Notes under the pieces: model-generated | Told to the model about the DNA's origin: nothing | Databases searched by the model: none | Seen by the model: only the letters and a program-made list of their open reading frames with translations | Shown: piece by piece, positions 3,701 to 51,228 of the stretch | Layout: each line of letters opens with the position of its first letter | How positions within the stretch are numbered: position 1 is the first letter of the stretch | From: Candidatus Micrarchaeota archaeon | GTDB taxonomy: Archaea > Micrarchaeota > Micrarchaeia > Anstonellales > Anstonellaceae | Assembly (NCBI GenBank): GCA_043810635.1 | Contig: JBDRNY010000021.1 | Location: forward strand, 1-54,040 | Reading direction: 5' to 3' | Length of the DNA: 54,040 bases | Translations under genes and position numbers: made by a program

Positions 3701-5038
3701 GAATTGTATACGATTGACGGAAGGGCGGCGAAAAATTTTGATGAAGTGTATAAATCCATTTTATATGATGTTTATGGAATGAGCAGCAATGCAGAGCAGA
3801 TGGCAATGCAGCATAAAATGAATGACATGCTGCAAAAAAGCAATAAAATACTTAATGATGCGCAGCTGTCGTCAGAGCATGAAAAAGAACTGGATAATAT
3901 TGAAAAAGGGCTTAGAAGCCAGCTGCCTGAAAATGTAAAAGTTATGGACGGCACCCAGCTTAGGAAATTTGTTCTGGACGGGAGAGGTGCCAAGCTTACA
4001 GAAGCGCAGCAAAAATCATTGAACACGCTTATAGGCGTGGTCCATTACTCGGAATTTCAGTCTACAGATATGAAAGATTTGGAATCAACAATGTATATGT
4101 CAGGCTTTGTTGTAAGGAAGACAGCAAACACTCAGATTGTCAATTCAATGCTTCTTGAAAAATCAATCAGAAATGAGCTGAGGCAGGAATACGGGACCAT
4201 GGACATAAATGAGCTGCGTGCCATAGCGCAGAAGGGGACAGATTACGCAAAATTAGACCCATATTCTTTAGAGCCAACAAAAAATGAAATAAATGCAATC
4301 AAAAAGCTTAATGCGCTTAACAGCGGAATTGGAAGTGTGCTGGGGATATACAATACGCTCTCATCAGGTGAGCAAAAGCTTGCCAATAATATTGTGAAAG
4401 CGGAAATGGCAGACGTTGCCATGACAAGACATTCCGTATTGATGCAAGAATCTAATTTGGACAATATGGTTGAAACAAATCTTCGGCTGAAATCCGGAAA
4501 CCAGCATCTCGTTAAGATTACAAAAATAGAAAGGGAGGCGGCACAAAAGGCTGAGGAAAGCTTTGATAAAATGCAGGAAAAGCTGGGAAGGATTGATGAA
4601 ACTTTAGGCAAAAAAGTGCCTACAGTATTTGAAGAGCATAAAAGAAAAGTTGGAAGCAAAATAAGAATTGTCAAAGTTCCGACAGATTATAAACCGGAGA
4701 TAGTTGTAAACCAAAAAGCAATGGATGAATTTAGAAATGATGTTAAGGCATACCAAAGCCAGCAAAGAAAATTTGAGCAGAATATGAACAATATAAATGT
4801 TCTTAGAATGGCGGGAGATGCGATTGCAAATACTATGACTCCTGTACTTTCCAAAAAAAGAAAGTCAGGGGAATTGAGGGTGCTTATGAAGGAAACAAGC
4901 GAATTGGCATTGAACTATGCACGCCCGAGAGTTTTAGAAAAGAAAAAAGCCGAAATACTTGGGAAAATCCAGCAAAATATTGTAAGGATAAATAATATAT
5001 CCCAACAAGAAAAAGGGATTGAAAAGAAGAAAAAATAA
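725..5038 (+). CDS. Giant single-pass membrane protein (1437 aa) of unknown function, first gene of the cluster. It has a signal peptide, a ~220-aa Cys-rich ectodomain, one TM and a ~1160-aa Cys-free cytoplasmic domain.
   Basis: Long ORF. N-terminus is VGLGVFLALILFISLVAGA followed by CEGSPPCDGKECADENLECVEAAGKCTCQSIC. The TM is TFCWALAIVFGLLLSASYTVGRN. The remaining ~1160 aa contain no Cys, a Gly/Lys-rich segment (GGAIKGGLKGGFKGAVKGMKFGKAG) and a charged, coiled-coil-like C-terminal third. I see no recognisable enzymatic motif. Confidence 0.85.
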   Translation: MQSFGVMESRCGRVGLGVFLALILFISLVAGADCEGSPPCDGKECADENLECVEAAGKCTCQSICTEPPKRTYIEAFYEDYKSTKNKGTLDINVFYIDDSGQVPEKKPVEGGLVIIDSGAYVKGGGYDPFGGAGANKVCRATTDSEGKILVNLPHPSGGQKITHRIIFCPYTDMTSEGGKEDLAVCARLYDNNADVYEKINWQEIPVCEGNQPDPENNMLFNGEDVKKADRIGPSETSVEAINNNPSAAATTFCWALAIVFGLLLSASYTVGRNPLMFLDMNSMRQVKMNRNFGYYFPRTQNVSVNVEAIANTIYSAAKVATAKKEKKGEGKEDGKKEEPKQREGESNEDFEGRKLGEKIAGEMGSFSMDGLLSGTFLDNKYDSAYAKSRGGIRQELLAPVLGDPAKGENVAGENLFGDSPFLRGLGRVSVRMLASGMLEGGVNLVGGAIKGGLKGGFKGAVKGMKFGKAGSYAGMRILREGYRPLVWELLKGGVMLAPASDETGADVEGPVAVGGKFEAVEKLKKTVEGREYSGKFDIAGNESIGYTVSGKIVASKKLEDTKKKLRNLKRFVPSGSYPTFSTRDNVYAIFDDKEIAKLNKMLAGEKTIITDKFGRKYLVEKNWDMYSMTTTFDITMEGTKLKSAEFTKDGRVKLELYAKTTEDGFPDLKSEVLTYNTDYALNMETGKVQLVDNLLSNPSQGEYFKTSSAGTIAFNPNTQEMITLQSGENFAVTTQTRLVLSSIFRGEWIDALQELAKPVTGTVASLLAIGKGLKGEYVLKKAERTFGKGYERFKIKKISQNKGIVVELFQNAEGEQEEGREVGTFEKGNIKFSEEYAGSFDSNRIYRVDGESIFDVTTEVNGKTTQINGTEIDGTRINIGGKELEIINKMMPDKELNVQIIVDPNKPSRATGEFEVVALIYRSGYGVEKITDGKGNKIESINANGVEYGFETGKNMEGKSDSHVLAVSQVGKVSGNVDVNAWDLVIAKPNGELYTIDGRAAKNFDEVYKSILYDVYGMSSNAEQMAMQHKMNDMLQKSNKILNDAQLSSEHEKELDNIEKGLRSQLPENVKVMDGTQLRKFVLDGRGAKLTEAQQKSLNTLIGVVHYSEFQSTDMKDLESTMYMSGFVVRKTANTQIVNSMLLEKSIRNELRQEYGTMDINELRAIAQKGTDYAKLDPYSLEPTKNEINAIKKLNALNSGIGSVLGIYNTLSSGEQKLANNIVKAEMADVAMTRHSVLMQESNLDNMVETNLRLKSGNQHLVKITKIEREAAQKAEESFDKMQEKLGRIDETLGKKVPTVFEEHKRKVGSKIRIVKVPTDYKPEIVVNQKAMDEFRNDVKAYQSQQRKFEQNMNNINVLRMAGDAIANTMTPVLSKKRKSGELRVLMKETSELALNYARPRVLEKKKAEILGKIQQNIVRINNISQQEKGIEKKKK

Positions 5039-5056
5039 TTGGGAGGTTATGGCAGG

Positions 5057-6208
5057 ATGCTGAATGACTATATGGTTGCCCTTCCTTACGGAATTGCAAT
5101 CGGAAGCGCAATAGTTGCCCTTGCATATATGGCGGGCGCGTTTTTGCAGTCAAAACAGGCAAAAGCTTATGCAAAAACAGAGATGGGGGAGCTTGTACTA
5201 TCTGCAATTATTGTGGTTATTGCATTAAGCGTATACAGCTCGCAGGATATTAACATTGCACTAACAGGCAGTGCTGATATTCAGGGAGCGACAATAGACA
5301 GTATGAAAGTATATATGGAAAAGCCGCTAAACGATGCGTTTGTTTCCCTTGTAAGCTCAAGCTATTCATTAAGCAAATATATTTCATATAACTATAATAT
5401 CCAGCTGCCGCTTCCGGGCTTTTCACCCCAGACTGCCCAAAGCAAGGGGATAGGAGCATATCCCCTCAGCCTGCAACTTATTAGGGGAATTGATGCAATA
5501 TCACTGAACCTTTTGCTTGTAAGGGCAATGATGGTGCTTTATATTTTCCTTGAATTTGCATTCAAGCATATGCTTCTTCCTGCAGGAATTATTTTGCGCT
5601 TTATTCCGCCAACAAGAAAGATGGGCGCAATTTTAATAGGCACAGGGCTTGCAGTGCATCTGGCATTTCCTGCGGCGGTGGTATGGACAGGCTCTATGGC
5701 GCAGGATATTATGCCAAATTATGATGCACCCATAAGGGAGCTGGCAGACCCGGGAGATCCTGCATCTGCAGGAATTATCTGCAATGAAGTGGTGCAAACT
5801 GTTTATGGAATAGGGGATATGTTCGGGCCTTTGCTTATATGCATGACAGCATGCCTTGCAGCAACTGTAGGCTATCTTGCATGCGTGGGCTGGCCTTCAG
5901 TATGGCCTTTTACCACAGGCTCGGGATGCCTTGCAGGAGTATCAAGCGGATGGCAAATATACCAATATGCATTTCCCTTAACTGTTGGGCCAAACCTTGA
6001 GCTTTCAAGCATTGTGCTGACAGCAGAAAAGGCGGAAGAAATATTTGGAATAATTTTAGAGCAGATAATTCCTGCTGTAATGGAAAGGCATGTTGCAATA
6101 CTTATCATGGTAATTTTGCAGCTTACAGTTACTATTGTGCTTGCGCGGGCATTTTCCCAGGCAATAGGCGCAGAGGGTCAGATTTACGGGCTTAGCAGGT
6201 TGATATAA
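5057..6208 (+). CDS. Polytopic membrane protein, TM-core paralog 1 (no N-terminal signal peptide, small ectodomains)
   Basis: The ORF track starts at TTG 5039; ATG 5057 follows a GGAGG at 5042. It shares with paralogs 2-6 the TM hairpin (LAYMAGAFLQSKQAKAYAKTEMGELVLSAIIVVIAL), the core LLPAGIILRFIPPTRKMGAILIGTGLAVHLAFP and the C-terminal tail AIGAEGQIYGLSRLI. Confidence 0.85.
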   Translation: MLNDYMVALPYGIAIGSAIVALAYMAGAFLQSKQAKAYAKTEMGELVLSAIIVVIALSVYSSQDINIALTGSADIQGATIDSMKVYMEKPLNDAFVSLVSSSYSLSKYISYNYNIQLPLPGFSPQTAQSKGIGAYPLSLQLIRGIDAISLNLLLVRAMMVLYIFLEFAFKHMLLPAGIILRFIPPTRKMGAILIGTGLAVHLAFPAAVVWTGSMAQDIMPNYDAPIRELADPGDPASAGIICNEVVQTVYGIGDMFGPLLICMTACLAATVGYLACVGWPSVWPFTTGSGCLAGVSSGWQIYQYAFPLTVGPNLELSSIVLTAEKAEEIFGIILEQIIPAVMERHVAILIMVILQLTVTIVLARAFSQAIGAEGQIYGLSRLI

Positions 6209-6210
6209 AT

Positions 6211-7179
6211 ATGGAAAAAATACGCATGCTTGCATTGTTTTTTGCGGTTTTGTTTAGCATAAATATTGCATCAGCGCAAGATGTGTGCTTTGGGCAGACA
6301 ATGAACTGGGCATTGGAGCCGAGGTTTGCAATAGGCGGGGGGGCTCTTATAGGGTATGGAATTTTGATTATGGCATTTTTGTGCGTAGGCGCATATATGA
6401 TTGGAAAAGCTTTCAGCAAGCCGGAGTTTGTTGTGTGGGGCGCAAGCGAGGGAGTTACGCTCGTCTGGTCAATTCTGCTGATAATTGGAGTGCTGGCTGC
6501 ATTTATTTTTTCATGCGAGCTTTCCCAAAAAATTGCAGAAATAAACAACCCCAACAAAAGCCCGGCACATATGGCAACATTGGGCTTGAATGACTTGAAC
6601 AACAAATTTGGAATAACGATTGCAAAGGATTTGCAGGAGGATGCTATACATGACATGTTTGAGGGGATGTATTATGCATATTGGTCAATCCCTGCAATGG
6701 ACGGAGGAGGGCTTGCTTACAGGGCAAACAAGAGGGCATGGGCAACGCAGAGGGAGGTGCTTATAGATATCTATCTTCCGCTCAGCTATCTGCTGCATGC
6801 ACAAGAGCTTTTTCTTGAAATTTTGATGCCCGGTGTGATTGCAATTATTCTGCCTGCAGCGCTTTTCTTCAGGATGCTTTTTGTTACCCGGGATGTGGGA
6901 AATATTTTGATTGCTCTTTCCTTTTCAATATATTTTGCATTTCCGCTTGTGTATTTGCTCGCATTTTCTGCAACTGAAAACATGACAGCTGATTTTGAAG
7001 GGGATGAAAAAAACCCTTTTGAAAAAATGTCGCTTGCAAAAGATATGGTTGTTGGGGATGCGTTCCAAAAAATAGGGTATCTGGCGGCTGTTGCAGTTCT
7101 TTTGCCAAACCTTGCGCTTGTAATAGTTATTACAATGACAATGTCATTGTACAAGGCAATGAGAGGTATTGTTGCATGA
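6211..7179 (+). CDS. Polytopic membrane protein, TM-core paralog 2
   Basis: It has a signal-peptide-like N-terminus (LFFAVLFSINIASAQD), the TM hairpin GAYMIGKAFSKPEFVVWGASEGVTLVWSILLIIGVL and the core ILPAALFFRMLFVTRDVGNILIALSFSIYFAFP. Its stop overlaps the next start (ATGA at 7176). Confidence 0.85.
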   Translation: MEKIRMLALFFAVLFSINIASAQDVCFGQTMNWALEPRFAIGGGALIGYGILIMAFLCVGAYMIGKAFSKPEFVVWGASEGVTLVWSILLIIGVLAAFIFSCELSQKIAEINNPNKSPAHMATLGLNDLNNKFGITIAKDLQEDAIHDMFEGMYYAYWSIPAMDGGGLAYRANKRAWATQREVLIDIYLPLSYLLHAQELFLEILMPGVIAIILPAALFFRMLFVTRDVGNILIALSFSIYFAFPLVYLLAFSATENMTADFEGDEKNPFEKMSLAKDMVVGDAFQKIGYLAAVAVLLPNLALVIVITMTMSLYKAMRGIVA

Positions 7180-10100
7180 TATTGAATTTAGTCAAAAAAT
7201 TTGCGCCGGTTGTGTTGGCATTGCTCATTCTTGCTAGTGCAGCAAATTTTGCGCAAAAAAATGTAACCGAGCTGATTGAAGCGCAGATTCAAAACCCTCT
7301 TGCATACTGGGTTACAAATTATGAGGCGGTTGCCATTCTGGCCGCCATAATTGCAATTATTTTGGTGGCTTTGCTGTATTTTGCATCAAAATTCTTTGAA
7401 AGCGAGGAAATGGCAGGGCTTGCAAAAACAGAGCTTGTGCAGGCGGTTGCAGGAATTATTATACTGATAATTTTCCTTGCATTTGTCAATACATCAGACT
7501 GGCTCATAAACTATTCTGCTGAAAATATTAAGAGCCCGTGCCTTGACCCGAATTTCAATCCGCCTCCCCAGGCAACAACAATAAACAAATATGCTGCATG
7601 CTATACCCATAACCTGAAAGCAATGGCAGTAAGCATTGGAAAAAAAGCGCTCGGGGAGTCTGTTAAAGAGGCAAGAGAAGCATATTCAAGCTGGGGTTAT
7701 CAGAGCAATACAATATACCTGCTATACACTGGAATAAGCGGGAGGTTTAATGCGCACAAGAGGCTTGACTCTGAAATAAACGGGCTTGAATTTGATTTGG
7801 CAACAATATATATTACAAGCCTTGAGGCGCAGGAAAAATTTCTTAACAACATTGTGCCGGTGCTTGGGCCAAGCGCGCTTTTGATTGGAATTGTATTGCG
7901 CTCATTTTTCTTTACAAGAAAGCTTGGCGGGCTGCTTCTTGCAATAAGCATAGGGTTGATGATAATATTGCCTGCATGCTATCTTTTGGCATGGTACACT
8001 TTGCAGGTTGCGGCATATGGCGGGAAAGCAATAGGCGAGCCTGAAAGCTTATGCCCTGAAGGGTGCAAAGTGCTTCCGCCGTGGGGCTATTTGAAATCAA
8101 AAAATATTGATGGTGCGCAGCTTGCAATGGGCTTTTATGATGATGAACACAGGGTTGATGATTATGGAGTGTATTCTTTTGCAGATGTGGAAGAGATTAA
8201 TTTAAAGAGGGTGGAAAACGGAAAAGAGATGCTTACATTAAAAGACGGGGAAGCATGGATGGATGAAGAGAAAATTCAGGTTTGCTTCCCAAGGGACAAC
8301 TCCGGCTGGGGGAGTGCATTCAGTGCAGAGGATTCTGCAAACTGCCCTGCAGAATGCAGGTATTTGCCAACTCCAACAGAAATTAATTGCGACCAAAGCG
8401 CATGCGACAAAATTCCTGCAGCATGCAAAGCAGTAAGGGCAATGACAGAAGAGGATTTTGCCGACTATTGCACAGTAGAGAAAAACAAAGATTTTGCATG
8501 CTATTGCCCAGAAGACTGCATGCTTGATTTGCCTTTTGTTGAAGAGGATGCTGGTGCTGTAAACAAAGAAATGCTGGAAAGCAAATTTATGCAAATAAGC
8601 GAAAATGCAAACAAGTTTGCAGAAGATCCGCCGTTTGACTGTACAAAATGTCCGGTGCACTGCAGAGGTTATTATTCTGATATTGAGCCACAGGAAGTGA
8701 CCCATGCAGGGCAGGATAATGCCTGTGACAAGGAATGTGCAAACTGTTTTGAAGCAAAGCCTGATGTGCTTACAGGAATTCCTTCTTTGCGCACCACAAC
8801 ATGCAATTCCGAGCATACATGCGGAGACCCGTTAAGCGCCCGTGATGCGATTGCACAGGGAAGGCTTGATGTCTGCCCTATTGAATGCAGGGCAATTTTT
8901 GACGGGGTGGATGAAAAATACAAAGACCCGTATTATATTTATTATTGCGAGCAAAATTTCAAGAAAGTGTGTGAAGGCAGATGCCCTGAAAAATGCAAAA
9001 TCAAAATTTCAGATGTTGTTGCTATGGGAGGCTGCAGCTCTCCCCCAAAATTTGAAAATTTGGCAGGAAGAGCATGCACATATGAAGATGTAAAAGACGG
9101 GTGGGACGGAAACAATGCAAAATGCCTGATGGAAGCAGAAATTACTGCAAATTGCGCAAGATGCCCACTTGCGTGCAGGTTTGTAAACCCAAGCTCTATA
9201 CCAGAATACAAAGAAGATGACCTGGATACTGAGGAAGACGAATCAGAGCAGCTGGAGCTTAATGAAAACAATATTGAATTTTGCTCAGATCCGGATGTAA
9301 GAAGGTTTTGCACATGGGACAGCCCAAGGGATTATTGCAACTTAGGCGTGTGCGGGGTTGACAGGGAAACAGAAGGGCCTTTCTTGTGTGAAATTGAAGA
9401 CTTGTCATATAAATATTCGAATTTGCCGAATAATGAAGAATATTGCGGAACATGCTATACTATAAATAGTGCAAAAACAACAGGCCCGCAATGCCAGGTT
9501 TTGCTTTATTGGCAAAATGAAGAAGGAGAAATTCCTGCAGAATGCTCTGATGCTTGCAATCCTGGCACCACTAATGCCAGGGCGGGCGGGCAATGCAATG
9601 GATTTTGCTATCCAAGGCTTGAAATTCCTTCTGGCGGAAGCTGTGGGGAATATGATGAAAATAGCAGGGGTGAGGATGACAGGAGCATGGTAAACGGCGC
9701 GGCATGCCCCCTGAATTGCAGATATGATTATATGACAAAAAGCGGGGAAAAAATGCCGAATTATGCATTGCAAGCCTGTGGCTATGAATTAGATTTTTCA
9801 GACGGGCCGAAGGAGTGTGATACACGCTGTGAAGGAAGGGTTTATGGAACACGCAACAAAGACTGGTGCGAGGGAAGACGCAATGCAAATGCAGTCTGCA
9901 ATAGTGATGGCAGAACAAGCAGGGTATGGTATCACATAAATTCAGCGCCAGAAGTTCCAGATATGACAAGCTCATGCCCGTGTGAAGATGATAATGAATG
10001 CAATCAAAATACATGTGAGGATTCTAGAGGGGTTGAATACACAATAGGAAGGCTTCCAATTTATTCCTGCCAACGCCAGCAAACATATGATGGGTGGGAT

Positions 10101-11084
10101 GCAATTGTAAGGCGGGATACCGTAAAGGCAAATTATATAGAGTGCGGAACAATTGACAAAACAAATAATCAGGATTTGAATTTCTGCGGAAAGAAAACTG
10201 TTTTAAGAAGAGATGTTGTAGGGCTGGCTTCAGAATGCAAGGCAGAATATAATGCAAGGGCTGTTGCATGCCTGCCCAAGCCGCCGCTGGATTTGAAATC
10301 AGGCTATTGGACTGACGAGCAGGTAGCAAGGTTTGAAGCATCAATTCAAAGAGGGGAGCCTGTACTCGGGGTGGACGGCGGATTGGATGGTGATGGAAGC
10401 GATGTGAATTGTGTGAGTTGCCCCCTTCCTTGCAGGGTAAATGAAAATACAGATTATCAAGTATGTAAAGAATATGCCGAACACTCGAATGCAATAGACT
10501 GTGAAAGCCAGGTGCAATGTGATTTGCGCGCAATGCAGAACTCTCCGCCCGAAGTATACAACCCGATTGGATATTGTGGGGTTGATGGGGAGGCATTTAA
10601 CCTTGATAATAATTTATGTGAAAAGCCTCTTGCAGATAAGAGTGCTGCATGCCCTGCAAGATGCAGGCTTTCAATTTCAGGAGCGCTTCCAGTAGGGTGT
10701 GGAGAAGGGGAAATTGCTGATGCATGCAAATACCTTAAGCAGGAGTGTACAGCACAGGTGAAGGGAGCGCCATGCGCTGAATGCGACAAATGCGCTGTTG
10801 TGGAATGCACTGCAAAGCCATATGCATGGACAGAAAGCTGCACTGAGCTGTGCACAGCAGATGACTTGGAGTTAAGCCTCGGGCAACAAACCCCAGAAGC
10901 CCTGCTTTCAACAATTGAAGGGGCAAATGCAAGATACTCTGACTGGCAAACTCTTGGAGCGCTTGGGGTTGCATCATTTGTTCTTCCAATATTTTGCATG
11001 ATCATAACCATTGCATTTATCAGAACCCTCTCGCCATTGCTTGGGGGAGATATTGAAATTCCGGGGATAATGAAGTTGATATAA
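7176..11084 (+). CDS. Polytopic membrane protein, TM-core paralog 3, with a ~950-aa Cys-rich ectodomain inserted between the core and the last TM (1302 aa)
   Basis: It has the TM hairpin LLYFASKFFESEEMAGLAKTELVQAVAGIIILIIFL and the core VLRSFFFTRKLGGLLLAISIGLMIILPACYLL. The ectodomain holds about 80 Cys (manual count) and ten C-P-x-x-C-[RKM] motifs. The final TM and tail read FVLPIFCMIITIAFIRTLSPLLGGDIEIPGIMKLI. Confidence 0.85.
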   Translation: MILNLVKKFAPVVLALLILASAANFAQKNVTELIEAQIQNPLAYWVTNYEAVAILAAIIAIILVALLYFASKFFESEEMAGLAKTELVQAVAGIIILIIFLAFVNTSDWLINYSAENIKSPCLDPNFNPPPQATTINKYAACYTHNLKAMAVSIGKKALGESVKEAREAYSSWGYQSNTIYLLYTGISGRFNAHKRLDSEINGLEFDLATIYITSLEAQEKFLNNIVPVLGPSALLIGIVLRSFFFTRKLGGLLLAISIGLMIILPACYLLAWYTLQVAAYGGKAIGEPESLCPEGCKVLPPWGYLKSKNIDGAQLAMGFYDDEHRVDDYGVYSFADVEEINLKRVENGKEMLTLKDGEAWMDEEKIQVCFPRDNSGWGSAFSAEDSANCPAECRYLPTPTEINCDQSACDKIPAACKAVRAMTEEDFADYCTVEKNKDFACYCPEDCMLDLPFVEEDAGAVNKEMLESKFMQISENANKFAEDPPFDCTKCPVHCRGYYSDIEPQEVTHAGQDNACDKECANCFEAKPDVLTGIPSLRTTTCNSEHTCGDPLSARDAIAQGRLDVCPIECRAIFDGVDEKYKDPYYIYYCEQNFKKVCEGRCPEKCKIKISDVVAMGGCSSPPKFENLAGRACTYEDVKDGWDGNNAKCLMEAEITANCARCPLACRFVNPSSIPEYKEDDLDTEEDESEQLELNENNIEFCSDPDVRRFCTWDSPRDYCNLGVCGVDRETEGPFLCEIEDLSYKYSNLPNNEEYCGTCYTINSAKTTGPQCQVLLYWQNEEGEIPAECSDACNPGTTNARAGGQCNGFCYPRLEIPSGGSCGEYDENSRGEDDRSMVNGAACPLNCRYDYMTKSGEKMPNYALQACGYELDFSDGPKECDTRCEGRVYGTRNKDWCEGRRNANAVCNSDGRTSRVWYHINSAPEVPDMTSSCPCEDDNECNQNTCEDSRGVEYTIGRLPIYSCQRQQTYDGWDAIVRRDTVKANYIECGTIDKTNNQDLNFCGKKTVLRRDVVGLASECKAEYNARAVACLPKPPLDLKSGYWTDEQVARFEASIQRGEPVLGVDGGLDGDGSDVNCVSCPLPCRVNENTDYQVCKEYAEHSNAIDCESQVQCDLRAMQNSPPEVYNPIGYCGVDGEAFNLDNNLCEKPLADKSAACPARCRLSISGALPVGCGEGEIADACKYLKQECTAQVKGAPCAECDKCAVVECTAKPYAWTESCTELCTADDLELSLGQQTPEALLSTIEGANARYSDWQTLGALGVASFVLPIFCMIITIAFIRTLSPLLGGDIEIPGIMKLI

Positions 11085-12241
11085 TGAAAGCCAGGCATGA
11101 AAATAAAAAAAGGAAGAGGAGTATATGGCGCACACCGTTAATTGCAGTTTTGACTATTATGTTTCTTCTGCCGGCAGCTTTTGCAGCGCCAAAATGGGAA
11201 GTTGCAGTTTCGGCTGCAATTGCAATATCAATTCTCGGGGCAGCAATCGCATATCTGGCAGTGCATGCAATGCGGCTTGAGGTGATGAAGCCTGTTGTTT
11301 ATGATGAAATCGGGCAGGTTGTGCTGAATGTAATTATAATCGGGGTGATTATTCTCTCGCTCAGCTATTTTGATGATTCAATAAAAAAGTTTGTATTCGG
11401 ATTTAGCCAGCCTTCAGATACATGCAAGGAATGCTCCAAAGATACAGAGCAATATATTTATTGCAAAGCAAGCGCAAAAAATCCAGATTCGTGCAATTTT
11501 GACCCGAATGCGCCCGTGGAACCGCCTGCTGAGAATTTGCGGGGGTGGGCTTTGAACCTAAATGACCGCTCGCAAAAGCTTTTGGAAAAAAGAATTGACA
11601 ATATGGTGGAATATTCAAATGCAATAGGAGAGCAAAGCTCGCGGAGCGGGATGTGCAACTTTCTTGCAATAGGGTTTACAATTGCGGGATGCTCTTCTTG
11701 GGGAGTATTGCGGGGACCAGTAGGCCAGATGATAAATGTTGCAGGCATGGGAATGATGGATTTGGAAGCTGAAAGGATTTTGCTTCAGTTTGCGCAAAAT
11801 ACTGTGCTTGCACTTTTTCTGCCGCTGGGAATTTTGATGCGTGCGTTGTATATTACAAGGAAGGCGGGCTCTACTTTGATTGCGCTTGCGCTTTCGTTTT
11901 ACTTAATATTTCCTGCAGTAATTTTGATGGGGAATGCTGTTGCAGATGCGTTTATCAAAAATTATCAAGATTATGGAGACATATCAGGACTTGATGCAGG
12001 AAGCATAGAATGCGACCCGTTTGACCCGGATTTGAGGGATTTGAAAAACCAAATAAAGCAGGTTAATGAAGGCGGGAAAAATGATGAGCCTTCAAAATCC
12101 GAAACCCTGATATTCTATGTGCTTGGGCGGAATGTTATGATAACCGCGCTTGCGCTTACAGCAACTCTCGGGGCGGCAGGCGCACTTGGAAAAGGGCTGG
12201 GAGCGGAAATTTATATTAGTGCAATAGCAAGGCTGAGCTGA
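11084..12241 (+). CDS. Polytopic membrane protein, TM-core paralog 4
   Basis: The start overlaps the previous stop (TAATG). It has a signal-like N-terminus (LTIMFLLPAAFAAPK), the hairpin IAYLAVHAMRLEVMKPVVYDEIGQVVLNVIIIGVII, the core FLPLGILMRALYITRKAGSTLIALALSFYLIFP and the tail GLGAEIYISAIARLS. Confidence 0.85.
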   Translation: MKARHENKKRKRSIWRTPLIAVLTIMFLLPAAFAAPKWEVAVSAAIAISILGAAIAYLAVHAMRLEVMKPVVYDEIGQVVLNVIIIGVIILSLSYFDDSIKKFVFGFSQPSDTCKECSKDTEQYIYCKASAKNPDSCNFDPNAPVEPPAENLRGWALNLNDRSQKLLEKRIDNMVEYSNAIGEQSSRSGMCNFLAIGFTIAGCSSWGVLRGPVGQMINVAGMGMMDLEAERILLQFAQNTVLALFLPLGILMRALYITRKAGSTLIALALSFYLIFPAVILMGNAVADAFIKNYQDYGDISGLDAGSIECDPFDPDLRDLKNQIKQVNEGGKNDEPSKSETLIFYVLGRNVMITALALTATLGAAGALGKGLGAEIYISAIARLS

Positions 12242-12468
12242 TGGAAAAAATAAATAAAATGCAGAAAGATGCCCGCATTTTCGCGAAAAAAGCCAGCTAC
12301 AGCTTCTTGCTTGCAATTATGATTGCGCTTCTTTTTTCAAATTTTGCATTTGCAGAAATAATAGCAGAAGTGCAATATTCGGTAAATGACCAGCCGCCAG
12401 GGCAACAGCCTCCTGCAGAAATGCAGAGCAATGATATGCTTCAAACATTTGTTTGGCCCTCATGCGAG

Positions 12469-12478
12469 CCCCCCCCCC
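12469..12478 (+). repeat. Poly-C tract (C10) causing frameshift 1 in paralog 5
   Basis: Sequence reads gag-CCCCCCCCCC-tcatgc. With 9 C the frame reads ...WPSCEPPPSCSGQFYVTYTYSCGG. The tract is flanked by the direct hexamer TCATGC. Confidence 0.9.
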
Positions 12479-13208
12479 TCATGCTCAGGGCAGTTTTATG
12501 TTACTTATACCTATTCCTGCGGAGGGGAAGATGTAGATATTTCGGAATATGATGTTCAGGCAGGCGACCCTATATGGGAATTTTTTATTGCAAAATCATA
12601 CCCGCAATGCCAGAATTTGGATGTTTTGCAAAAAATTGAAGTAAAAGACACAAACCCCCCGGAAGATGAGCTAATTCCGCCCGTTCAAAATCCAATTATA
12701 ATAAACTGGGTGAACCAAAACCTTCCGCCAGATGTTGCAATAGACATGATTAGCCCTGAAGAGCGTGCATACACTCCGGGAGAAGATACGGAAATAGATA
12801 TTTATATTGAGTTTCGGGATTCTGATGATTTGGCAAAAAGGCTGATGACTAATGTACAAATAATGCATGACGGAGAAATAACGGGCAGTGTTTCCTGCAT
12901 TCCCGCGCTCGGAGGGCTGCAATGCACAGAGCAGGGCGATTTGGATAAAATGATCGAAACGCTTGGCGGAAGTTTTATCCACTACGTGATGCGAATAGAC
13001 AGCTCAACATATACACAAGATATTTTGGTTAAGGCAAATGTACAGGATCCGCAGGGGCTGCAAGATGCAGCAGATATGATAATTACTTCTGGAGATTTGC
13101 CAAAAAAGCCTGAAATTTTAGGTTATACTCCTGATGAACCGAGAAATGATGAGGAAATAATTGTTAGTGCAAGGCAGGATGAATTAAATGTTGGAAATCC
13201 AAACAGGC

Positions 13209-13216
13209 ATATATAT
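13209..13216 (+). repeat. (AT)4 dinucleotide repeat causing frameshift 2 in paralog 5
   Basis: Sequence reads c-atatatat-ac. Removing one AT unit gives cat ata tac aaa gtg tat gat = HIYKVYD, which matches the next tandem repeat. Confidence 0.85.
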
Positions 13217-15191
13217 ACAAAGTGTATGATAAAGATGGGGATTTGCAGTTTGAACAAACAGAGCCATTTGAGATGGTATTTCCGCCTCCACCGTCCATAA
13301 CAACTTCATATTCATTCACATGCACACCTGAAATATGCAAAAATAAAATTACTGTGGAAGTAATTGCAATCGGGAACGGGCTGGCTTCAGAATCTGCATT
13401 TATTACTATTGATTTGGATGATGGTGCACCAAGATATCTTATGCCCCCGCTAATCAGGATAGAGCCAGATGATCCTGAATGGGGGGAGGATTTTATTATT
13501 TATACAACACAGCCAGATGAGAGCCTGCCAGCACTTGAGCACAAATATAAAATTTATGAAATTGACGGGGAGGAGCAGGAGGAAATCCTGAGCTTTACCC
13601 TCCCTGTGCAAAACAGGGAAACCCAATATAATTTTGAGTGCGGAAGCGAGTATTGCGACAATCCAATTCTGGTTACAGTGAAAGCAGCAGATGGTTCTGA
13701 TGAATCAGAAGCAGGAAATTTGCTTATACAATTCAGGCCGGTTGCCCTGCCCCCGCCAGTGCTTGTTTCCGCAACTCCGCAGGATGTTTTTGAGCAGCTG
13801 GATTGGGATGGCATTGCCCTGATATTTTCTGAAAGCGATGTTATAATAAATATTGAAGCCGGAGGAGGGGGGCAAACTCCTGATAAGTTTGTTTATGAGG
13901 GCACAATAAACGGGGAAGAAATGGGCATTATTTCAGGCACCAAGCCTGCATCAGAGCTGCAGCAGATGAGAATAAATTGCAATGATATTGGATGCAAATA
14001 CGGGGATTATATAAGGCTGGATATAACAGCATATGAAGGGGTGAGGCAGAGCAGGCCGCTCTCCCTCAACTTTTATGTATCAGACCCAGAGCAGGGCTTA
14101 ATGCCTGCAATTGGAAGAATTTGCAGCAAGAAAGAAATCAACTCACTTATAGTTTATTCTGTAGCAGGGTTTGTTGCAATGATATTTATAATTGCAATAA
14201 CATTTATGCTGGGAAATGCACTCCATCAGCCGAGGTTTTTAGACTGGTCAAAAATGGAAGCAATGCAGATTGTTTTTTCATTTGTATTGTTTGCCTTGAT
14301 ATTTATTGCACTCCAGCTGCAATGCAACCTGAATATTGTTGAATTTAAAAACTGGCTTGGGGGGCAGGGAGGGCTTGCCCTTCGCGGAACTACAATGATG
14401 GAAGCTGCACAAGATTATGTTGAATGGTCGGTGGGGCAAACACACCTTACCCTGGTTATGCTGAGAAGGGATTTGGGGGCAATAAACATGCGCGCAACCT
14501 ATTCAAACTATGACAACCAGGGCTTGGGGCTTGGAATGAACGGATTTAGCTATGCGCCCTATTCAGGAGATTATACCACCACAGGCGCAATGGGAATGTT
14601 AATGAACCTGAATACTGGATTTATGCTGACAAATCTTTTTGAATATTTTTCGCTTGCATTTTTTGCATCCAGCACAGGGTTTCTTATATTTCTGGTGCCT
14701 ATTGGATTTTTGCTGCGCTCGGTGCCTTTCCTGCGCGGGCTTGGAGGGGGATTAGTTGCAATAGGAGTCGGGTTTTATATCATGTACCCGATTATTTTTG
14801 CCATGCTTGCAATCGCGCTTCCGCCGGCAATAACCAATGATGCAAGCAAAGTGTTTGATGACAGGTATTGCGGGGGAAAAGACTGCGGAACAGGAAACAA
14901 TTTGCAGCTGAAAATTGACAAGGTGCAGGCTGATGAGGAGAGCATTACAGGAAAAAACATATTTTCATATTTTGACGACCATCCAAACCCAAAAATAAAT
15001 ACCAACCCTAATGATGAAGAGTTTCCAAGGGTTGATTTGGCCACATTCTTCAGGCTTACTGCAATCAATTTTATAAGAACATTTTTCCTTCCAACTGTCG
15101 GCCTTGTTATAACAATTTCAATCATACGAGATATGTCAGGACTGCTGGGCGATGAAGTTGATGCGACAAAGCTTGTGCAAATGGTGTGATA

Positions 15192-16364
15192 ATGGAAAAT
15201 AGAAAATTAAATGCACGAAAAATCTGGCTTGCGCTTGCCTTTCTTATTGCAATCAATGCAATTATGCCCGCACTAAATGCTGCTGATGAAAGCACATGGG
15301 GAAGTGAGGAAGATGCTGCAAGAGTTAAATATTTCTTCCTGCAGCCGGGGGAGGAAGGGGCAGCGCAGGATACACGGCACCAGTGGAGAGGCATTGCAAT
15401 GCTTGCAATTGCAGTATGCATTTTTGCAAATATACTGGTTTATATGACAGGAAGGGCATTGGGAATGCAAAAAGTGGAAAGGTTTGCAATATCTGAATTT
15501 TACCAGGTAAGCGCATCTGCGATTATGATATTTTTGCTTATTTTGGTAGCAGAGGAAGGGTTTAATTTCCTTGCCCATGAAAGCGTGGGAATACTTCCGG
15601 AAGGCACAACTACAAAATGCGCAGGCGAGGAAAAAAATGTTTGGGAAGAGGGGCCGTTTGGAATAATGAGGTGCAAAATACAGGAAAAAATAATATATTT
15701 GGAAAAGCTTTATGACCAGGCATATGAAAACAACAAAAGAGTAGAATGGAAAACAGCTACATGCATTTATTTCATGAGCCTGCCGGTGTATTGCGGAGAC
15801 TGGAATATTGGCTGGCATGCAACTGTTGAAAAATCGCATTATATTGCGCACAAGATTGCGCCTATTGCAATCAATCTGCATGGCCAGTATATTTTTGCAA
15901 CCTATCTTGAGCAAAATATGCTTGCAGTGTTTTTGCCGCTCGGGCTTATTCTAAGGATTTTTCCGCCATTCAGGGGGATTGGGGCAATGCTTATAGCAAC
16001 ATCAATCGGCTTTTATATAGTGTTTCCAGTGTCATATATTTTGCTTGACCCAAGCACTATAAGGCCTGACCCATCGCAGGTTGTTCCCTATGTTGATGAT
16101 GCAAATGTGGGCCAGTGCTATAGAAGCTTTTCAGGCATGATAACCCTTCTTACCAAGCCACCAGCGCAGGAGCAGGGGGCAGGCGGGGTGCAGCAATTGC
16201 CAGACCCGGATAGGATTGGGAAGGAGATTGCGAACCTGCAGGTTGAGGCATTTTTCTATCCCTTGGCAGCGCTTGCTGCCACAATGTTTTTCATAACAAC
16301 TGCAGCCCCCATACTCGGAGGAGATTCTGGAATGATAATGCATTTCTTGGCAAAGGTTATATGA
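15192..16364 (+). CDS. Polytopic membrane protein, TM-core paralog 6
   Basis: ATG 15192 lies 2 nt after the stop of paralog 5 (the track starts at GTG 15186). It has a signal-like N-terminus (LAFLIAINAIMPALNAADE), the hairpin LVYMTGRALGMQKVERFAISEFYQVSASAIMIFLLI, the core FLPLGLILRIFPPFRGIGAMLIATSIGFYIVFP and the tail APILGGDSGMIMHFLAKVI. Confidence 0.85.
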   Translation: MENRKLNARKIWLALAFLIAINAIMPALNAADESTWGSEEDAARVKYFFLQPGEEGAAQDTRHQWRGIAMLAIAVCIFANILVYMTGRALGMQKVERFAISEFYQVSASAIMIFLLILVAEEGFNFLAHESVGILPEGTTTKCAGEEKNVWEEGPFGIMRCKIQEKIIYLEKLYDQAYENNKRVEWKTATCIYFMSLPVYCGDWNIGWHATVEKSHYIAHKIAPIAINLHGQYIFATYLEQNMLAVFLPLGLILRIFPPFRGIGAMLIATSIGFYIVFPVSYILLDPSTIRPDPSQVVPYVDDANVGQCYRSFSGMITLLTKPPAQEQGAGGVQQLPDPDRIGKEIANLQVEAFFYPLAALAATMFFITTAAPILGGDSGMIMHFLAKVI

Positions 16365-16368: not shown

Positions 16369-19300
16369 ATGAAAATGGAAGATATAAAAAAAACTGCACT
16401 TTTGTTTGCGATTTTGGCAGCAATTGCCCTCTTTGCATCAGGATGCACCCAACAGCCGAATACAAACCTATCATATGCAGACTGCTGCCAATATTCAGAA
16501 AAAAATTATGAATGCTTTATGGTGATGGAGGGGGATGAGCCGAAAAGAGATGGTGACGGAAGAATCGAGCTTAGTGAATGCGGCATATGCGAAAGATGGG
16601 ATGATTCAAGCGGGCTGTTGTATGACAATGCAGGAAATATTTTGCTGGATAAAAAGAAAATTCCTATCACCCCGGCAGAATGTGAAAATAATTGCAATTT
16701 CCAAAAAGCTGACTGCACAAACGAGGATGAGAGCGGAAACTGCTACCTTGTTGAAAACAACAAAATAAACCAAGATGTTGTTGTTGCCCCGATTTGCAGG
16801 GTTGCACCCGGAGACCCCTGCACCCAAAACGAATGCTCTGCAATGATATGCTCTGAGCAAAAACCAAGAGTAAGGCTTGCAACAAATGAGCAGGGGCTGA
16901 ATGCAATGGCTGAGAAGGGGAGCAGTGCAAGCAAGGATGTGGATGATGTTGGCGGGCTGAAGGGGATGATGTGCACATTTGACAAAATGAGCTCAAAAAC
17001 AACAAGGTTGCTAAAAAAAGGAGACGGATTTATAAATTCATTCAGGCTTGGAATTTCCGGGAGCTTTTCAGATTATGAGCAGGCGCGCTTTTACTTCCCG
17101 CCTTCGGATTTTTATTGCGGAAAGCTGGGGGAAAGGGCTGTTGTTGACAGGTTTGTAAATTATTTGGATGATGGAAAGGTATTGCCTCCGTTTAGGGGCG
17201 GAAATTTTATGGCAAAATTGCATTACTGCCAAAGGGATGGTGAAAAAGATGCAGATGATTCATATTGGTATTGCACAAATCCGCCCGAGCTGAGCGGCCT
17301 GAAATTTATTGTAGGGGAATATGCTTCAGATGAGGCTGCAGAATATGCTTGCGCAAATATTTGCAATTATTGGCAGGGAAAAACCTGCGAAAACAACAAC
17401 GAGCTTTATACTATTGATATTAATATTGCGCCACCGGGGGCAGATGAAAATATAGAAAAATTTGTAGATTATACAAGATATTATAGTTTGCTTGAAAAAG
17501 CTTATCCGATTCCGGACGCCCTTGATTATTACCATATAATGCCGCCCCTTGATGCAGGTGAGGAAGATATGGCAGCGGAGCTGCTAAAGCCGGGACCTGC
17601 AGGGGCACGGGTGTTTGAATGCACTGAAAGCACAGATTGCATGTCAAACATATGCAAAAAAGATGAGTTTAGCACAACCGCATGCTTTGACAAAAATACT
17701 GGCGAGAGGCTGGATTGCGGATGCAGGCTTATTTATGACTGTGATTTTGCATATTTGTGCGATCAGCTATATAAGAAAAGAACTGTTAAGTGGACAACAT
17801 GCTATAAATTAAGAAATGAATTGTGTGCATACAGGATTGGAGAGGGATATGTGCTTGCATGCGAATATAATGCAGTAGATAACAGAAAAGAATTTAGTGC
17901 ATTAAACGATTTTGGAGTGATTACGCTTGAAGATGACAAAATAAGGACTGGAGAATTTTGGGAGTTTGAGCAAACAAAAGACGAGCCACTGGAAATAGGG
18001 ATAATGCAAATGCTTGGGAAAAAAGAAAGGTGTTACAACAAAAACCTTGACCCGCAATGGAAAGACAAAAAAGAAGGAAGATGTCCCTCTGGGTATGAAA
18101 AAGAATTTTATTACAAATGGGTGAATGACCCTACAAGCGTTCGGGGATGTGTTGATGCGGAAGGAGGTTTTCGTGCATGCATAGAAGAGCATTGGGGCGC
18201 CTCGTTTGCGCCGGTTCCGTATGAGCAAATAATAATTGACACATACGGAGGGGGGACAAGCTTTTACACGGCCCCAGATATTACTTTTGAACAATTAAAG
18301 CAAAGAATGCCTGTTATTGATGCGTGTGAAATGCAATATGGAACAGATGTTATAGAATCAGAAACAAATGAAGGGACGCTGGAGGAAGCGCTTAAAAATT
18401 CAGGAGGGTATCCGCAGGATGAGAATGCAAAAAGAATAAACAAAATGTGGCGGCTTAATCGGCAAGGGGAAAATTCAGGGTTTGGAAAATGCATGCGCTC
18501 TGGAAAAGGGGATTATGACATGCCGTCGGTATTGGAATACGGAGTTTGCGAGCCTTGCGGCACCACTCTTTCATTGGCGTTTCAGAAAATTACAACTCAT
18601 GACAAAAGCTATTGCCCAACAACATGCAACACAGTATTTCCAATGTGCTTGTGTGATGATGAAGTGGAAGAACCCAGGGCGCACTTTATTTATTTGCATG
18701 AAACAGCTCCAAAAACATATCCAGAGTATGGATTTATTTCAAGCAAAATAGACGAATACATGGCTGCAGGCATAATGCCTGTGCTTGATATAAAAGAGTA
18801 TGAAATAACCACATCAGCACTTGGTTTGGACAAATATACTAGGTATTGGGATGCAGATGGAGAGGGGAGAGAATGGTGCGAGAATATGGGGGGGGAATGG
18901 GAAGAAGAGGGAAACTTTCTTGATTATTCAGACAGCTGCACCTGGGAAATTGGGCTTGGCGGAGATTATTTTCTAAAAGGATTGGCTGACGGGCGCTCTG
19001 CATCTATTCTTATAGTGGATGATTTGGAAGGGGTGGAAACCAAGCAGAGAATAAGCAATGTAAGATCACAGTGCCCGGATTGCATGCTTGCGCTTGAAAT
19101 AAAGCTTGAGGAGGGAGAGGTGCAGAAGGCAATGGAAGACGGCACCTACCCGCAAAGAGTTTCAGATATAATAAGAGAGTTTAGCGAAGAAAAGGAATAT
19201 GATGAATACAGATTTTCAGATCCTTGGGGAGGGATGCCAAAGCCGCCGCAGATAGCAGATGTGGATATTTTAGTGCTTAATATGAATTTGGAAGGTGCAA

Positions 19301-31886: not shown

Positions 31887-31888
31887 AT

Positions 31889-33273: not shown

Positions 33274-33333
33274 GCCGAACCAAATCCACAACCCTTTTAT
33301 ACAATACAACGGTTGGAATTTACGGTGTTGTTT

Positions 33334-48170: not shown

Positions 48171-48174
48171 TTTC

Positions 48175-49392: not shown

Positions 49393-49402
49393 AACTCTGC
49401 CC

Positions 49403-51171: not shown

Positions 51172-51228
51172 ATTTGTGACCTCCGATTGGAATTGAATTG
51201 CCTCTGCGGCTGGGTATCCGCATGCAAG

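Follow-up and report, generated by a model that had tools for sequence, protein, structure and literature searches.

Positions 5039-16364 of a DNA stretch of 54,040 nt (the window: Candidatus Micrarchaeota archaeon, GCA_043810635.1, contig JBDRNY010000021.1, positions 1-54,040, forward strand) encode six tandem paralogs, P1-P6, each with five transmembrane (TM) helices. The six proteins are homologous, the number and order of their genes are fixed, the genes are tightly packed and the set, referred to here as the hexad, is spread across the phylum. The region is best explained as an operon of eight genes (G0-P1-P2-P3-P4-P5-P6-G7) that encodes a membrane complex, and we lean towards reading the hexad system as a membrane translocon akin to type IV secretion systems (T4SS) and Ced, in which the six paralogs supply the channel module. 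The host, of the DPANN phylum Micrarchaeota, is a tiny, symbiotic archaeon. The genes of the region are as follows:

G0, 725..5038, + strand, partner protein, 1437 aa
P1, 5039..6208, + strand, family member, position 1, 389 aa
P2, 6211..7179, + strand, family member, position 2, 322 aa
P3, 7176..11084, + strand, family member, position 3, 1302 aa
P4, 11084..12241, + strand, family member, position 4, 385 aa
P5, 12241..15189, + strand, family member, position 5; ORFs 12241-12552, 12386-13300 and 13222-15189 (core)
P6, 15186..16364, + strand, family member, position 6, 392 aa
G7, 16369..20229, + strand, partner protein, 1286 aa

The G0 stop abuts the P1 start, the first 4 nt of P3 coincide with the end of P2, and P4 shares 1 nt with P3 at its start and 1 nt with P5 at its stop.

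Six Paralogs on a Five-TM Scaffold

The ORFs lie where a preliminary description of this DNA had placed six tandem paralogs, and pairwise BLASTP over the core bears out their kinship, with E-values from 3e-5 to 1e-3 (nominal database size 1e8). All strings quoted there for three shared motifs are present in the translations. The six-way alignment contains invariant columns (E48, R187, R193, G196, L199 and P211 in P1 numbering), which are 92-100% conserved across 320 unique family members; column conservation in this set is E 95%, G 92%, R 97%, R 99%, G 97%, P ~100% and, in the tail, G 92%. The Glu is located in the TM1-TM2 turn, R-x5-R-x2-G in the TM3-TM4 turn, the Pro closes TM4, and G-x-[DE] lies in the tail. 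In all six paralogs the conserved residues face the cytoplasm or sit at the membrane boundary.

The proposed five-TM scaffold and the signal-peptide-like N-termini of P2-P6 are both seen by hydropathy, the signal segment of P5 being encoded in the separate ORF 12241-12552. P1 has the five core helices but lacks a signal segment, and its second outer loop contains an additional hydrophobic stretch. Helices in AlphaFold2 models of P6 (pLDDT 78) and P1 (pLDDT 83) agree with hydropathy. P2 is the most compact of the six and its C-terminal tail motif is degenerate. P3 carries a ~990-aa insertion between TM4 and TM5 and contains 84 Cys, with ten CPxxC[RKM] repeats.

The P5 gene spans 12241-15189. 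It is one gene, split into three ORFs in this assembly by two compensating frameshifts, at a C10 run (12469-12478) and an (AT)n run (13209-13217). Its orthologs are intact (1059-1090 aa), and tblastn alignments with two of them (1059 and 1073 aa) span two reading frames. The encoded protein starts with a signal peptide. Subtracting the 655-aa core ORF leaves an N-terminal outer region of ~600-700 aa, in which two-Cys segments recur, and the five-TM core beyond it matches the family profile at 3e-90.

A profile built from the six paralogs retrieves 2,870 protein clusters, the named members of which are nearly all Micrarchaeota “hypothetical proteins”. Searches of Pfam, NCBIfam and PDB sequences gave no significant match for P1-P6, which supports the view that no curated family covers them and agrees with the earlier failure to recognize the family. 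The outer segments had been considered hypervariable and mutually unrelated. They do differ between paralogs, but they are conserved inside each orthologous group, and the TM2-TM3 loop retains a weakly alignable helical scaffold; the outer domains are paralog-specific, not hypervariable. P6 orthologs, for example, share ~50% identity and have retained the Cys, Trp and His residues of the loop; the orthologs of P1 are P0002-P0010.

The Hexad Is a Fixed Module

Exactly six family genes are present in 24 of 28 uninterrupted clusters, the four exceptions being cut by contig ends or split. The best match of a family gene in another locus stands at the same position in 62% of cases (17% expected by chance), and in 51% when only distant loci are considered. 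Within hexads the median intergenic distance is 0.5 nt; 87% of the gaps are 10 nt or shorter, and at 43% of them the genes overlap. Three genomes contain a second complete hexad, not extra single copies. Compact hexads, which have small outer loops only, retain all six genes. The genes that flank hexads are otherwise housekeeping genes with no relation to the family.

One could imagine that these are independent surface proteins, i.e., a birth-and-death family of membrane anchors that show different adhesin or receptor domains and share no common complex. The outer domains are indeed very different, as the P3 insertion and the N-terminal extension of P5 with its Cys pairs illustrate, and DPANN genomes commonly encode large surface proteins rich in Cys. 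We nevertheless consider this scenario improbable. The fixed number of genes, their positional orthology across the phylum and their abutting or overlapping arrangement favour a six-subunit complex over independent proteins; duplication as whole hexads, conservation of each outer domain among its own orthologs, the cytoplasm-facing conserved residues and the retention of six genes in compact hexads argue in the same direction. The hetero-oligomer envisaged in the preliminary description thereby receives strong indirect support, and P1-P6 may well form a hetero-hexameric assembly.

Partner Proteins G0 and G7

Hydropathy divides G0 into a signal peptide, an outer domain that contains Cys, a single TM helix (~residues 247-265) and a ~1150-aa cytoplasmic domain. 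Homologs of its N-terminal ~390 aa adjoin type-1 hexads in loci L001-L003, L015-L017, L023, L026 and L029. G0 had been put forward as a seventh, truncated family member; this is rejected, since the family profile does not match it at E-values up to 100 with all filters off, and by sequence G0 is a partner protein rather than a member of the family. G7 carries a signal or lipoprotein-like segment at its N-terminus, contains 65 Cys and lacks further TM helices, and its homologs are found directly 3′ of the sixth gene of type-1 hexads (L004, L006-L017, L019, L021-L023, L026, L029 and L031). Neither G0 nor G7 has a match in Pfam, NCBIfam or PDB.

Compact Hexads Are Linked to a HerA/VirB4-Clade ATPase

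Downstream of the hexad in loci L030, L038, L039 and L044, and on its strand, come genes for two paralogous ~275-aa proteins with two TM helices and then one for a ~505-aa P-loop ATPase. L042 showed just one family gene on the stretch examined, followed by one such 2-TM protein and a 428-aa homolog of the ATPase. The ATPase matches HerA structures (8wiv, 3.9e-12; 4d2i, 7e-10) and, over residues 60-329, i.e., the entire ATPase domain, the VirB4-like protein 4ag5 (1.3e-6). An hhalign comparison with R388 VirB4 covered 236 ATPase-domain columns (P = 3e-4). A metagenome sample of 29 loci was chosen by the ATPase alone, each with at least 9.5 kb of upstream sequence. Six family genes and the two small genes were located upstream of the ATPase in 23 of these loci, and five family genes and the two small genes in 2 more (25/29). 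Compact hexads are thus linked to a HerA/VirB4-clade ATPase, a feature that the preliminary description had missed.

The linkage applies to compact hexads of other genomes; the 54-kb window contains neither a HerA/VirB4-like ATPase nor a homolog of the two small proteins. The hexad of the window may use an ATPase that is encoded elsewhere.

Resemblance to CedA and CedE

When 197 family members were compared with 18,950 NCBIfam and 24,736 Pfam models, ten matched CedE and six matched CedA, all below threshold (best E-values 4.2e-5 and 8.5e-5). Other NCBIfam families recurred at most twice, and every Pfam match was a singleton. CedA and CedE are thus the sole curated families matched repeatedly by hexad members. 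The matches are direction-dependent: 123 reversed hairpins, the reversed consensus first among them, gave no CedA or CedE match. Among the six window proteins only P6 matches CedE (E 0.0022) and CedA (E 0.016), again below threshold. Coordinates and scores are available for window P6 and the family consensus; there the match covers ~50-60 residues of the TM3-loop-TM4 hairpin, with bit scores below 20 against curated cut-offs of 330 and 400, that is, more than ten-fold lower. The family profile did not match the polytopic proteins of Sulfolobus conjugative plasmids pNOB8 and pKEF9. The preliminary description had overlooked this sub-threshold likeness.

CedA and CedE are VirB6 homologs, CedE having five TM helices (PMC11868833, PMC9905601), and a hetero-oligomer of the two has been proposed (PMC11868833). 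CedA, CedE and TedA, which belong to the Ced and Ted DNA exchange systems of Sulfolobales and Thermoproteales, are polytopic as hexad subunits are, and the latter share the five-TM count of CedE; the Ced/Ted partner ATPases (CedB/CedD/TedB) fall in the same HerA/VirB4 clade as the one linked to compact hexads. The systems also differ. Ced comprises one or two such proteins, each ~260 aa long, whereas in the hexad the number is fixed at six, the paralogs measure 300-1500 aa and their outer domains are large; a CedA1/TedC-like pilin gene was not found with hexads; hexad hosts belong to another phylum, within DPANN; and the window cluster has two giant partner proteins instead of an ATPase. Homology of the family to CedA/VirB6 is plausible.

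The weak CedA/CedE similarity and the HerA/VirB4-like ATPase of related loci could also point to a conjugation or DNA-transfer module of a mobile element (plasmid, ICE or virus) that happened to integrate here, and arrays of VirB6 paralogs are known in bacterial T4SS loci (PMC2653234). The genomic setting makes this origin very unlikely. Synteny is conserved in several genomes, with NMD3 on one side of the cluster and the proteasome/SBDS/exosome operon on the other. Other hexads lie among unrelated housekeeping genes (LeuRS, OTCase, glycogen synthase, RNR and similar), and a Pfam scan of these neighbours, with 25 of 43 families listed, showed no integrase, relaxase or coupling protein. GC content across the cluster (0.41-0.45) is inside the range of the remaining window (0.38-0.45), and orthologs of hexad genes track the phylum.

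Comparison with VirB6 and Tweety Proteins

The top PDB match of the P6 model in Foldseek was TrwI/VirB6 (8rt9_F; probability 0.77, E 0.08, TM-score 0.24-0.31). It is not significant and was not reproduced with P1: VirB6 is absent among the best 50 matches of the P1 model, the nine best of which are all TTYH1/2/3 (probability up to 0.72, E at best 0.06). TTYH2 is also among the P6 matches. TM-scores for both models are ~0.2-0.3 throughout, and ~0.2 for TTYH. Profile-profile comparison with a TrwI/VirB6 alignment gave a probability of at most 1.7%, equal to the reversed control, and none of the 197 members matched Pfam TrbL/VirB6 or Pfam Tweety.

VirB6/TrbL proteins (TrwI of R388, Rickettsiales RvhB6a-e, Anaplasma VirB6-1 to -4, Bartonella Trw) are polytopic subunits of a channel or platform in the inner membrane and have a helical part in the periplasm. 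They resemble the proposed hexad subunits in this layout, but show no sequence or profile similarity to the family. R388 VirB6 is a pentamer. The VirB6 sets of Rickettsia are like the hexad in their multiple paralogs, conserved TM-cytoplasmic region and large extensions: there are five, of 674-1154 aa, with conservation confined to that region (PMC2653234), which the extensions flank (PMC2653234, PMC7648143). Near hexads, phmmer searches with R388 VirB2, VirB4, VirB11 and VirD4, the Pfam scan of neighbours and hhalign of the small proteins against R388 VirB2-VirB11 revealed no homologs of VirB2, B3, B5, B8, B9, B10, B11 or D4, and no VirB2/CedA1-like pilin.

These results bear on a further alternative, which we regard as unlikely yet worth weighing: an envelope complex of a new kind that has no relation to type IV secretion, in which the six paralogs still form one complex, the CedA/CedE likeness is convergent and the ATPase drives assembly or transport by a mechanism not homologous to that of T4SS. 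Such a complex could anchor or organize the S-layer, or serve as a TTYH-like conduit for solutes or lipids in an organism unable to make its own lipids. Eukaryotic TTYH1-3 have the topology predicted for hexad subunits: N-terminus out, five TM helices, C-terminus in and extensions forming an outer helical bundle. This topology, the place of TTYH in both Foldseek lists, the empty hhalign comparison with VirB6 and the missing pilin gene speak for the alternative. So do the incomplete lipid, nucleotide and amino-acid synthesis of a cultivated Micrarchaeon that lacks known amino-acid transporters (PMC8975820) and the unresolved anchoring of its S-layer protein (bioRxiv 10.1101/2021.04.28.441871). 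Against it stand the low TTYH TM-scores and the null Tweety search, the recurrence of CedA/CedE matches that disappear on reversal, and the placement of the linked ATPase in the clade used by Ced/Ted and T4SS. TTYH proteins are homo-dimers with no known ATPase partner, and the resemblance of the models to them most likely reflects shared architecture, not homology.

A Putative Translocon

In the translocon that we prefer, the core would consist of six distinct homologous five-TM subunits, probably one copy each, in one hetero-oligomeric channel or platform, with each paralog displaying its own conserved outer domain. A pseudo-six-fold ring of subunits would fit a hexameric motor. The subunit would most likely be related, very distantly, to VirB6, CedA, CedE and TedA, the channel proteins of type IV secretion and archaeal DNA exchange. 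In the compact module of other Micrarchaeota, the hexad would be co-transcribed with the two small 2-TM proteins and the ATPase, which would power translocation; the form found in the window has large ectodomains and two giant partners, G7, which is secreted and rich in Cys, and G0, which crosses the membrane once and has a huge cytoplasmic domain. The transported substrate may be DNA, protein or host-derived material. The weak CedA/CedE resemblance of the family and the ATPase linkage of compact hexads make it probable that the system is related to machines of a known kind, and the motor ATPase adjacent to the hexad in relatives suggests that the product of the hexad is probably a channel, so far undescribed, of a secretion- or conjugation-like type.

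Organization of the gene cluster

G0 to G7 form a run of eight plus-strand genes with practically zero intergenic space, in which the six tandem paralogs P1-P6 are flanked by genes of two giant partner proteins, G0 and G7. The cluster and its flanks are laid out as follows.

Genes of the cluster and its flanks in the window
17-529, NMD3 gene, flank on one side of the cluster
725-5038, plus strand, G0, 1437 aa
5039-6208, plus strand, P1
6211-7179, plus strand, P2
7176-11084, plus strand, P3
11084-12241, plus strand, P4
12241-15189, plus strand, P5
15186-16364, plus strand, P6
16369-20229, plus strand, G7, 1286 aa
20334-24307, proteasome-alpha, SBDS, Rrp4, Rrp41 and Rrp42 operon, flank on the other side of the cluster

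The window is archaeal, and relatives carry Candidatus Micrarchaeota labels. The adjacency of the six-gene cluster to the proteasome-alpha/SBDS/Rrp4/Rrp41/Rrp42 superoperon recurs, in either orientation, in four loci fetched from related genomes (L001-L004). An additional gene of ca. 300 aa, absent from the window, is found directly upstream of P1 in several of the fetched loci (L001:9059-9997, also L002 and L003; L006:167-1063; L028:3408-4298).

Six paralogs with a common five-TM core

The common core ascribed to P1-P6 in the preliminary description is supported by mutual BLASTP E-values of 3e-5 to 1e-3 (nominal database size 1e8) and by matches of all six proteins to the family profile (3e-56 to 1e-89). 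The conserved motifs are likewise real: E48, R187, R193, G196, L199 and P211 (P1 numbering) are invariant in the six-way alignment, and the same columns are 92-100% conserved across 320 unique family sequences. The family signature is a five-TM core in which the TM1-TM2 turn has a Glu, the TM3-TM4 turn has R-x5-R-x2-G, TM4 ends with a Pro and the tail reads G-x-[DE], encoded as six tandem ordered genes.

Hydropathy analysis recovered the expected topology, with a signal-peptide-like segment and five TM helices in P2-P6 (the signal segment of P5 is located in ORF 12241-12552) and five core helices without a signal peptide in P1. AlphaFold2 models of P6 (pLDDT 78) and P1 (pLDDT 83) agree with this topology. 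Since the TM1-TM2 and TM3-TM4 turns carry positive charges, both turns and the C-terminal tail are predicted to be cytoplasmic, which is the face to which the motifs had been assigned.

The outer loops are paralog-specific yet conserved among orthologs, and "hypervariable", the term used for them initially, is therefore the wrong word; P6 orthologs are ca. 50% identical and retain the Cys, Trp and His residues of the loops. Two compensating frameshifts, one at a C10 run (12469-12478) and the other at an (AT)n run (13209-13217), disrupt P5, which is one gene; its orthologs are intact, and the first and last pieces of the window P5 are in a common reading frame. Both frameshifts coincide exactly with slippery repeats, and they could stem from misassembly or from phase variation of a subunit exposed at the surface. 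In its outer insertion (residues 293-1164 of the protein encoded at 7176-11084), P3 has the motif CPxxC[RKM] ten times.

The partner proteins differ from the paralogs. G0, proposed to be a seventh, truncated member, gave zero match to the family profile in hmmsearch even when filters were switched off and E-values of up to 100 were allowed, and its membership was rejected. It crosses the membrane once and has a cytoplasmic domain of ca. 1150 aa; its conservation in relatives is restricted to the N-terminal ca. 390 residues. What had been observed in the sequence therefore stands, and the interpretation placed on it was borne out only in part. G7 is a Cys-rich secreted protein with 65 cysteines and no CPxxC[RKM] motif; the cysteines of P3 number 84. 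We considered an S-layer role for G7 or P3 and rejected it, given that the known Micrarchaeon S-layer protein is almost devoid of sulfur-containing residues.

Family size and taxonomic range

P1-P6 matched no Pfam or NCBIfam model at threshold and no PDB sequence. Profile searches of PDB with family alignments returned noise only. A profile of the six retrieved 2,870 clusters (50% identity) at E <=1e-3 and 1,959 at E <=1e-10, and every named member is a "hypothetical protein".

A scan of GTDB representative genomes with the P6-ortholog alignment yielded 43 loci, 42 of which are titled as Micrarchaeota-lineage or "uncultured archaeon". The sole exception, L041 (DATJMH010000008.1), is titled "Candidatus Saccharimonadales bacterium"; it contains a complete hexad (a P1-P6-type six-gene cluster) of the Micrarchaeota type together with the two small genes described below, and its label is probably a binning error. 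One 2-kb contig with a family member is labelled Aenigmarchaeota. Because the scan relied on two short peptide patterns, the taxonomic range is a lower bound.

The hexad is a fixed module

ORFs were called in the fetched loci and scored with the family profile. Exactly six family genes were present in 24 of the 28 clusters uncut by a contig end, the other four being truncated or split. The best match of a gene in another locus shared its ordinal position in 62% of cases, and in 51% when distant loci were compared (17% is expected by chance). Neighboring genes of a hexad are separated by a median of 0.5 nt, and 43% of the junctions overlap. Two types can be distinguished. Type 1, to which the window belongs, is marked by large outer insertions and by G7 as the next gene, and it often adjoins the proteasome/exosome operon; type 2 is compact, with 300-550 aa per gene. 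G7 homologs are found directly after the sixth gene in most large-ectodomain clusters, and G0-like genes are located upstream or downstream of them. Three assemblies contain one hexad of each type: LFW-35 (L015 and L028), JBAZLL (L008 and L049) and JAZDKV (L007 and L045).

A constant gene number, a constant order, translational coupling and duplication of the module only as a whole are all expected of an obligate complex with six distinct subunits; none of the four is expected of independent surface proteins that evolve by birth and death. The neighbors of hexads in the other loci are housekeeping genes, and neither an integrase nor a relaxase was seen among the 25 of their 43 Pfam families that were listed, which argues against a mobile element. 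The hexad module is best described as phylum-wide and chromosomal.

A HerA/VirB4-clade ATPase is encoded downstream of compact hexads

The fetched Micrarchaeota loci were searched with T4SS and plasmid ATPases. Just downstream of the compact hexads in L030, L038, L039 and L044, a P-loop protein of ca. 505 aa (Walker A GITGAGKS, DEAW, REGRKY) was found, and in L042 a homolog of 428 aa follows the single family gene detected there. The protein matches HerA structures (8wiv, 3.9e-12; 4d2i, 7e-10) as well as the VirB4-like protein 4ag5 (1.3e-6), the latter match spanning the whole ATPase domain; in an hhalign comparison with R388 VirB4, 236 columns of the ATPase domain were aligned (P = 3e-4). CedB, TedB and VirB4 belong to this HerA/VirB4 clade. 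Between hexad and ATPase, there are two paralogous proteins of ca. 275 aa, in each of which two TM helices at the N-terminus are combined with a soluble domain; PDB searches and hhalign against the R388 VirB proteins, VirB3, VirB8 and the N-terminal domain of VirB4 included, returned no relatives of theirs. Downstream of the ATPase, genes for a 98-aa protein, a zinc-ribbon two-TM protein, a 241-aa protein and a 784-aa surface protein are all conserved between divergent loci. The zinc-ribbon protein is also encoded immediately upstream of type 1 hexads in L017 and L029 and may be a shared accessory or regulator.

Genes accompanying the hexads in fetched loci
L039:11035-14280, two small proteins and the ATPase; equivalents in L030, L038, L044 and L042
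L039:14590-14919, L030:14573-14950, L017:698-1048 and L029:2-352, zinc-ribbon protein, N-terminal CxxC...CxxC and two C-terminal TM helices

The association was tested independently by scanning metagenome contigs with the ATPase alone, which yielded 29 loci with >=9.5 kb of upstream sequence. In 23/29, the upstream sequence contained exactly six family genes together with the two small ones, all on the same strand; five plus two were found in 2/29, the two small genes only in 3/29 and none in 1/29. The ATPase is not the housekeeping HerA of a HerA-NurA-Mre11-Rad50 operon: its scores against Sulfolobus HerA are low (42 bits), and the nearby 784-aa gene, which encodes a surface protein with a signal peptide and a C-terminal TM helix, has no Rad50 match. 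From the hexads upstream of independently selected ATPase genes and from this context, it follows that the compact hexad is in one operon with a motor of the HerA/VirB4 clade.

In the 54-kb window, neither a HerA/VirB4-type ATPase nor a homolog of the two small proteins was found. The only P-loop candidate is an ABC ATPase adjoining permeases, the first of which scanned as MacB/FtsX-like. The large-ectodomain hexad may share the motor, may use G0 or may need none.

Other genes of the window
29880-31898, minus strand, ORF of 672 aa, no Pfam match
33313-35118, beta-propeller protein, 601 aa, between the 672-aa and 1121-aa ORFs
35870-39235, plus strand, ORF of 1121 aa, no Pfam match
46935-51992, minus strand, transporter cluster: two paralogous permeases (411 and 405 aa), a 527-aa gene and an ABC-type ATPase (Walker A GPSGSGKS)

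The cluster at 46935-51992 comprises the sole clear transport genes within the window.

Similarity to CedA/CedE and comparison with VirB6

In the crenarchaeal DNA-exchange system, VirB6 is represented by its homologs CedA and CedE, the latter with five TM helices (PMC11868833, PMC9905601). The curated cut-offs of their NCBIfam models (NF041796 and NF053657) are 330 and 400 bits; window P6 and the family consensus, for which scores were returned, remained below 20 bits. NCBIfam scans of 197 members (83 + 114) gave ten matches to CedE and six to CedA, with best E-values of 4.2e-5 and 8.5e-5, respectively; every other NCBIfam family appeared at most twice among these members, and all Pfam matches were singletons. 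In window P6 and the family consensus, where coordinates were returned, it is the TM3-loop-TM4 hairpin that aligns, to CedE 125-196 and CedA 128-183. A reversed control of 123 sequences (122 hairpins and the reversed consensus) produced zero CedA/CedE matches and a noise floor of single matches at E 0.0017 or weaker. A similarity that recurs, is consistent in position and goes beyond TM composition points, at the sequence level, to remote homology with CedA/CedE.

Direct homology to bacterial VirB6 found no support in sequence and profile comparisons. None of the 197 members matched Pfam TrbL/VirB6 (PF04610) at E <=0.1, and hhalign against 120 TrwI/VirB6 homologs gave probabilities of <=1.7%, equal to the reversed control, with a narrow TrwI alignment (Neff 3.3). 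The probability against TrwI as a single sequence was 0.1%, and single R388 VirB proteins gave nothing above the control. In the Sulfolobus conjugative plasmids pNOB8 and pKEF9, the family profile matched none of the polytopic proteins. No homolog of R388 VirB2 was detected in ca. 887 kb of Micrarchaeota loci, archaeal pilins being too divergent for this test to be decisive; one family member matched Pfam T4SS_pilin (E 0.03).

Fold searches with the two models disagree. The top match of the P6 model is TrwI/VirB6 (8rt9_F, E 0.082, probability 0.77, TM-score 0.24/0.31), VirB6 is absent from the top 50 matches of the P1 model, and the latter are headed by TTYH (7p54_A, E 0.061, probability 0.72, TM-score 0.22); no Pfam Tweety match was found among the 197 members. 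Every TM-score is ca. 0.2-0.3. An unrelated new envelope complex would be in line with these comparisons, and it would leave the CedA/CedE matches and the motor of the compact hexads to be accounted for; we hold it to be the less likely reading, though one with a considerable chance. Homology to the CedA/VirB6 superfamily appears likely, if unproven, and we have refrained from filing the family under it. The description that best fits the system is T4SS/Ced-like, with a six-paralog channel module and a motor gene that is decoupled in this window.

A partial precedent for the hexad is provided by Rickettsia, where five VirB6 paralogs of 674-1154 aa are conserved only in the TM-cytoplasmic region (PMC2653234). 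Rickettsia, however, retains a full T4SS. Several Bartonella genomes also encode multiple distinct TrwI/VirB6 proteins each (database sequences P0220-P0296), again forming VirB6 paralog arrays, in line with the amplification of trwI that is known from the Trw locus of Bartonella. We know of no described precedent for a VirB6-like ring diversified into six fixed, non-interchangeable subunits.

Proposed function and significance

In the mechanism that we propose, six homologous five-TM subunits, one copy of each, would assemble into a hetero-oligomeric inner-membrane channel or platform. The conserved cytoplasm-facing residues would form inter-subunit contacts or a common docking surface for a hexameric HerA/VirB4-type ATPase, which the two small proteins would tether to the channel, and the paralog-specific outer domains together with G7 would make the extracellular part.

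Micrarchaeota and other DPANN archaea are unable to synthesize lipids, nucleotides or most amino acids for themselves and are without recognisable transporters (PMC8975820). The dependence of the organism on its host for these compounds (PMC8975820) makes a role of the hexad in uptake or exchange attractive as a proposal. At its fullest, the proposal would be that of an ATPase-driven hetero-hexameric conduit of conjugation-like descent, a phylum-defining symbiosis machine importing DNA, lipids or other host material at the contact site, with the large-ectodomain form of the window and its Cys-rich partners G7 and G0 as the host-contacting version; we offer this fullest form as a speculative possibility.

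The hexad module is a concrete candidate for the machinery that obtains such compounds from hosts, on account of its phylum-wide spread, its six positions that are each an orthologous group of their own and its link to a HerA/VirB4-type motor. Hidden so far from annotation by "hypothetical protein" names and the lack of a Pfam family, it is large, conserved and directly testable in two cultivated Micrarchaeota, and the family, with its thousands of clusters, deserves a curated model. If the proposal is true, T4SS/Ced-like machinery would be extended to DPANN, and the hexad would be the first case of a channel subunit turned into six obligate paralogs, with a bearing on how hetero-oligomeric rings evolve from homo-oligomers.
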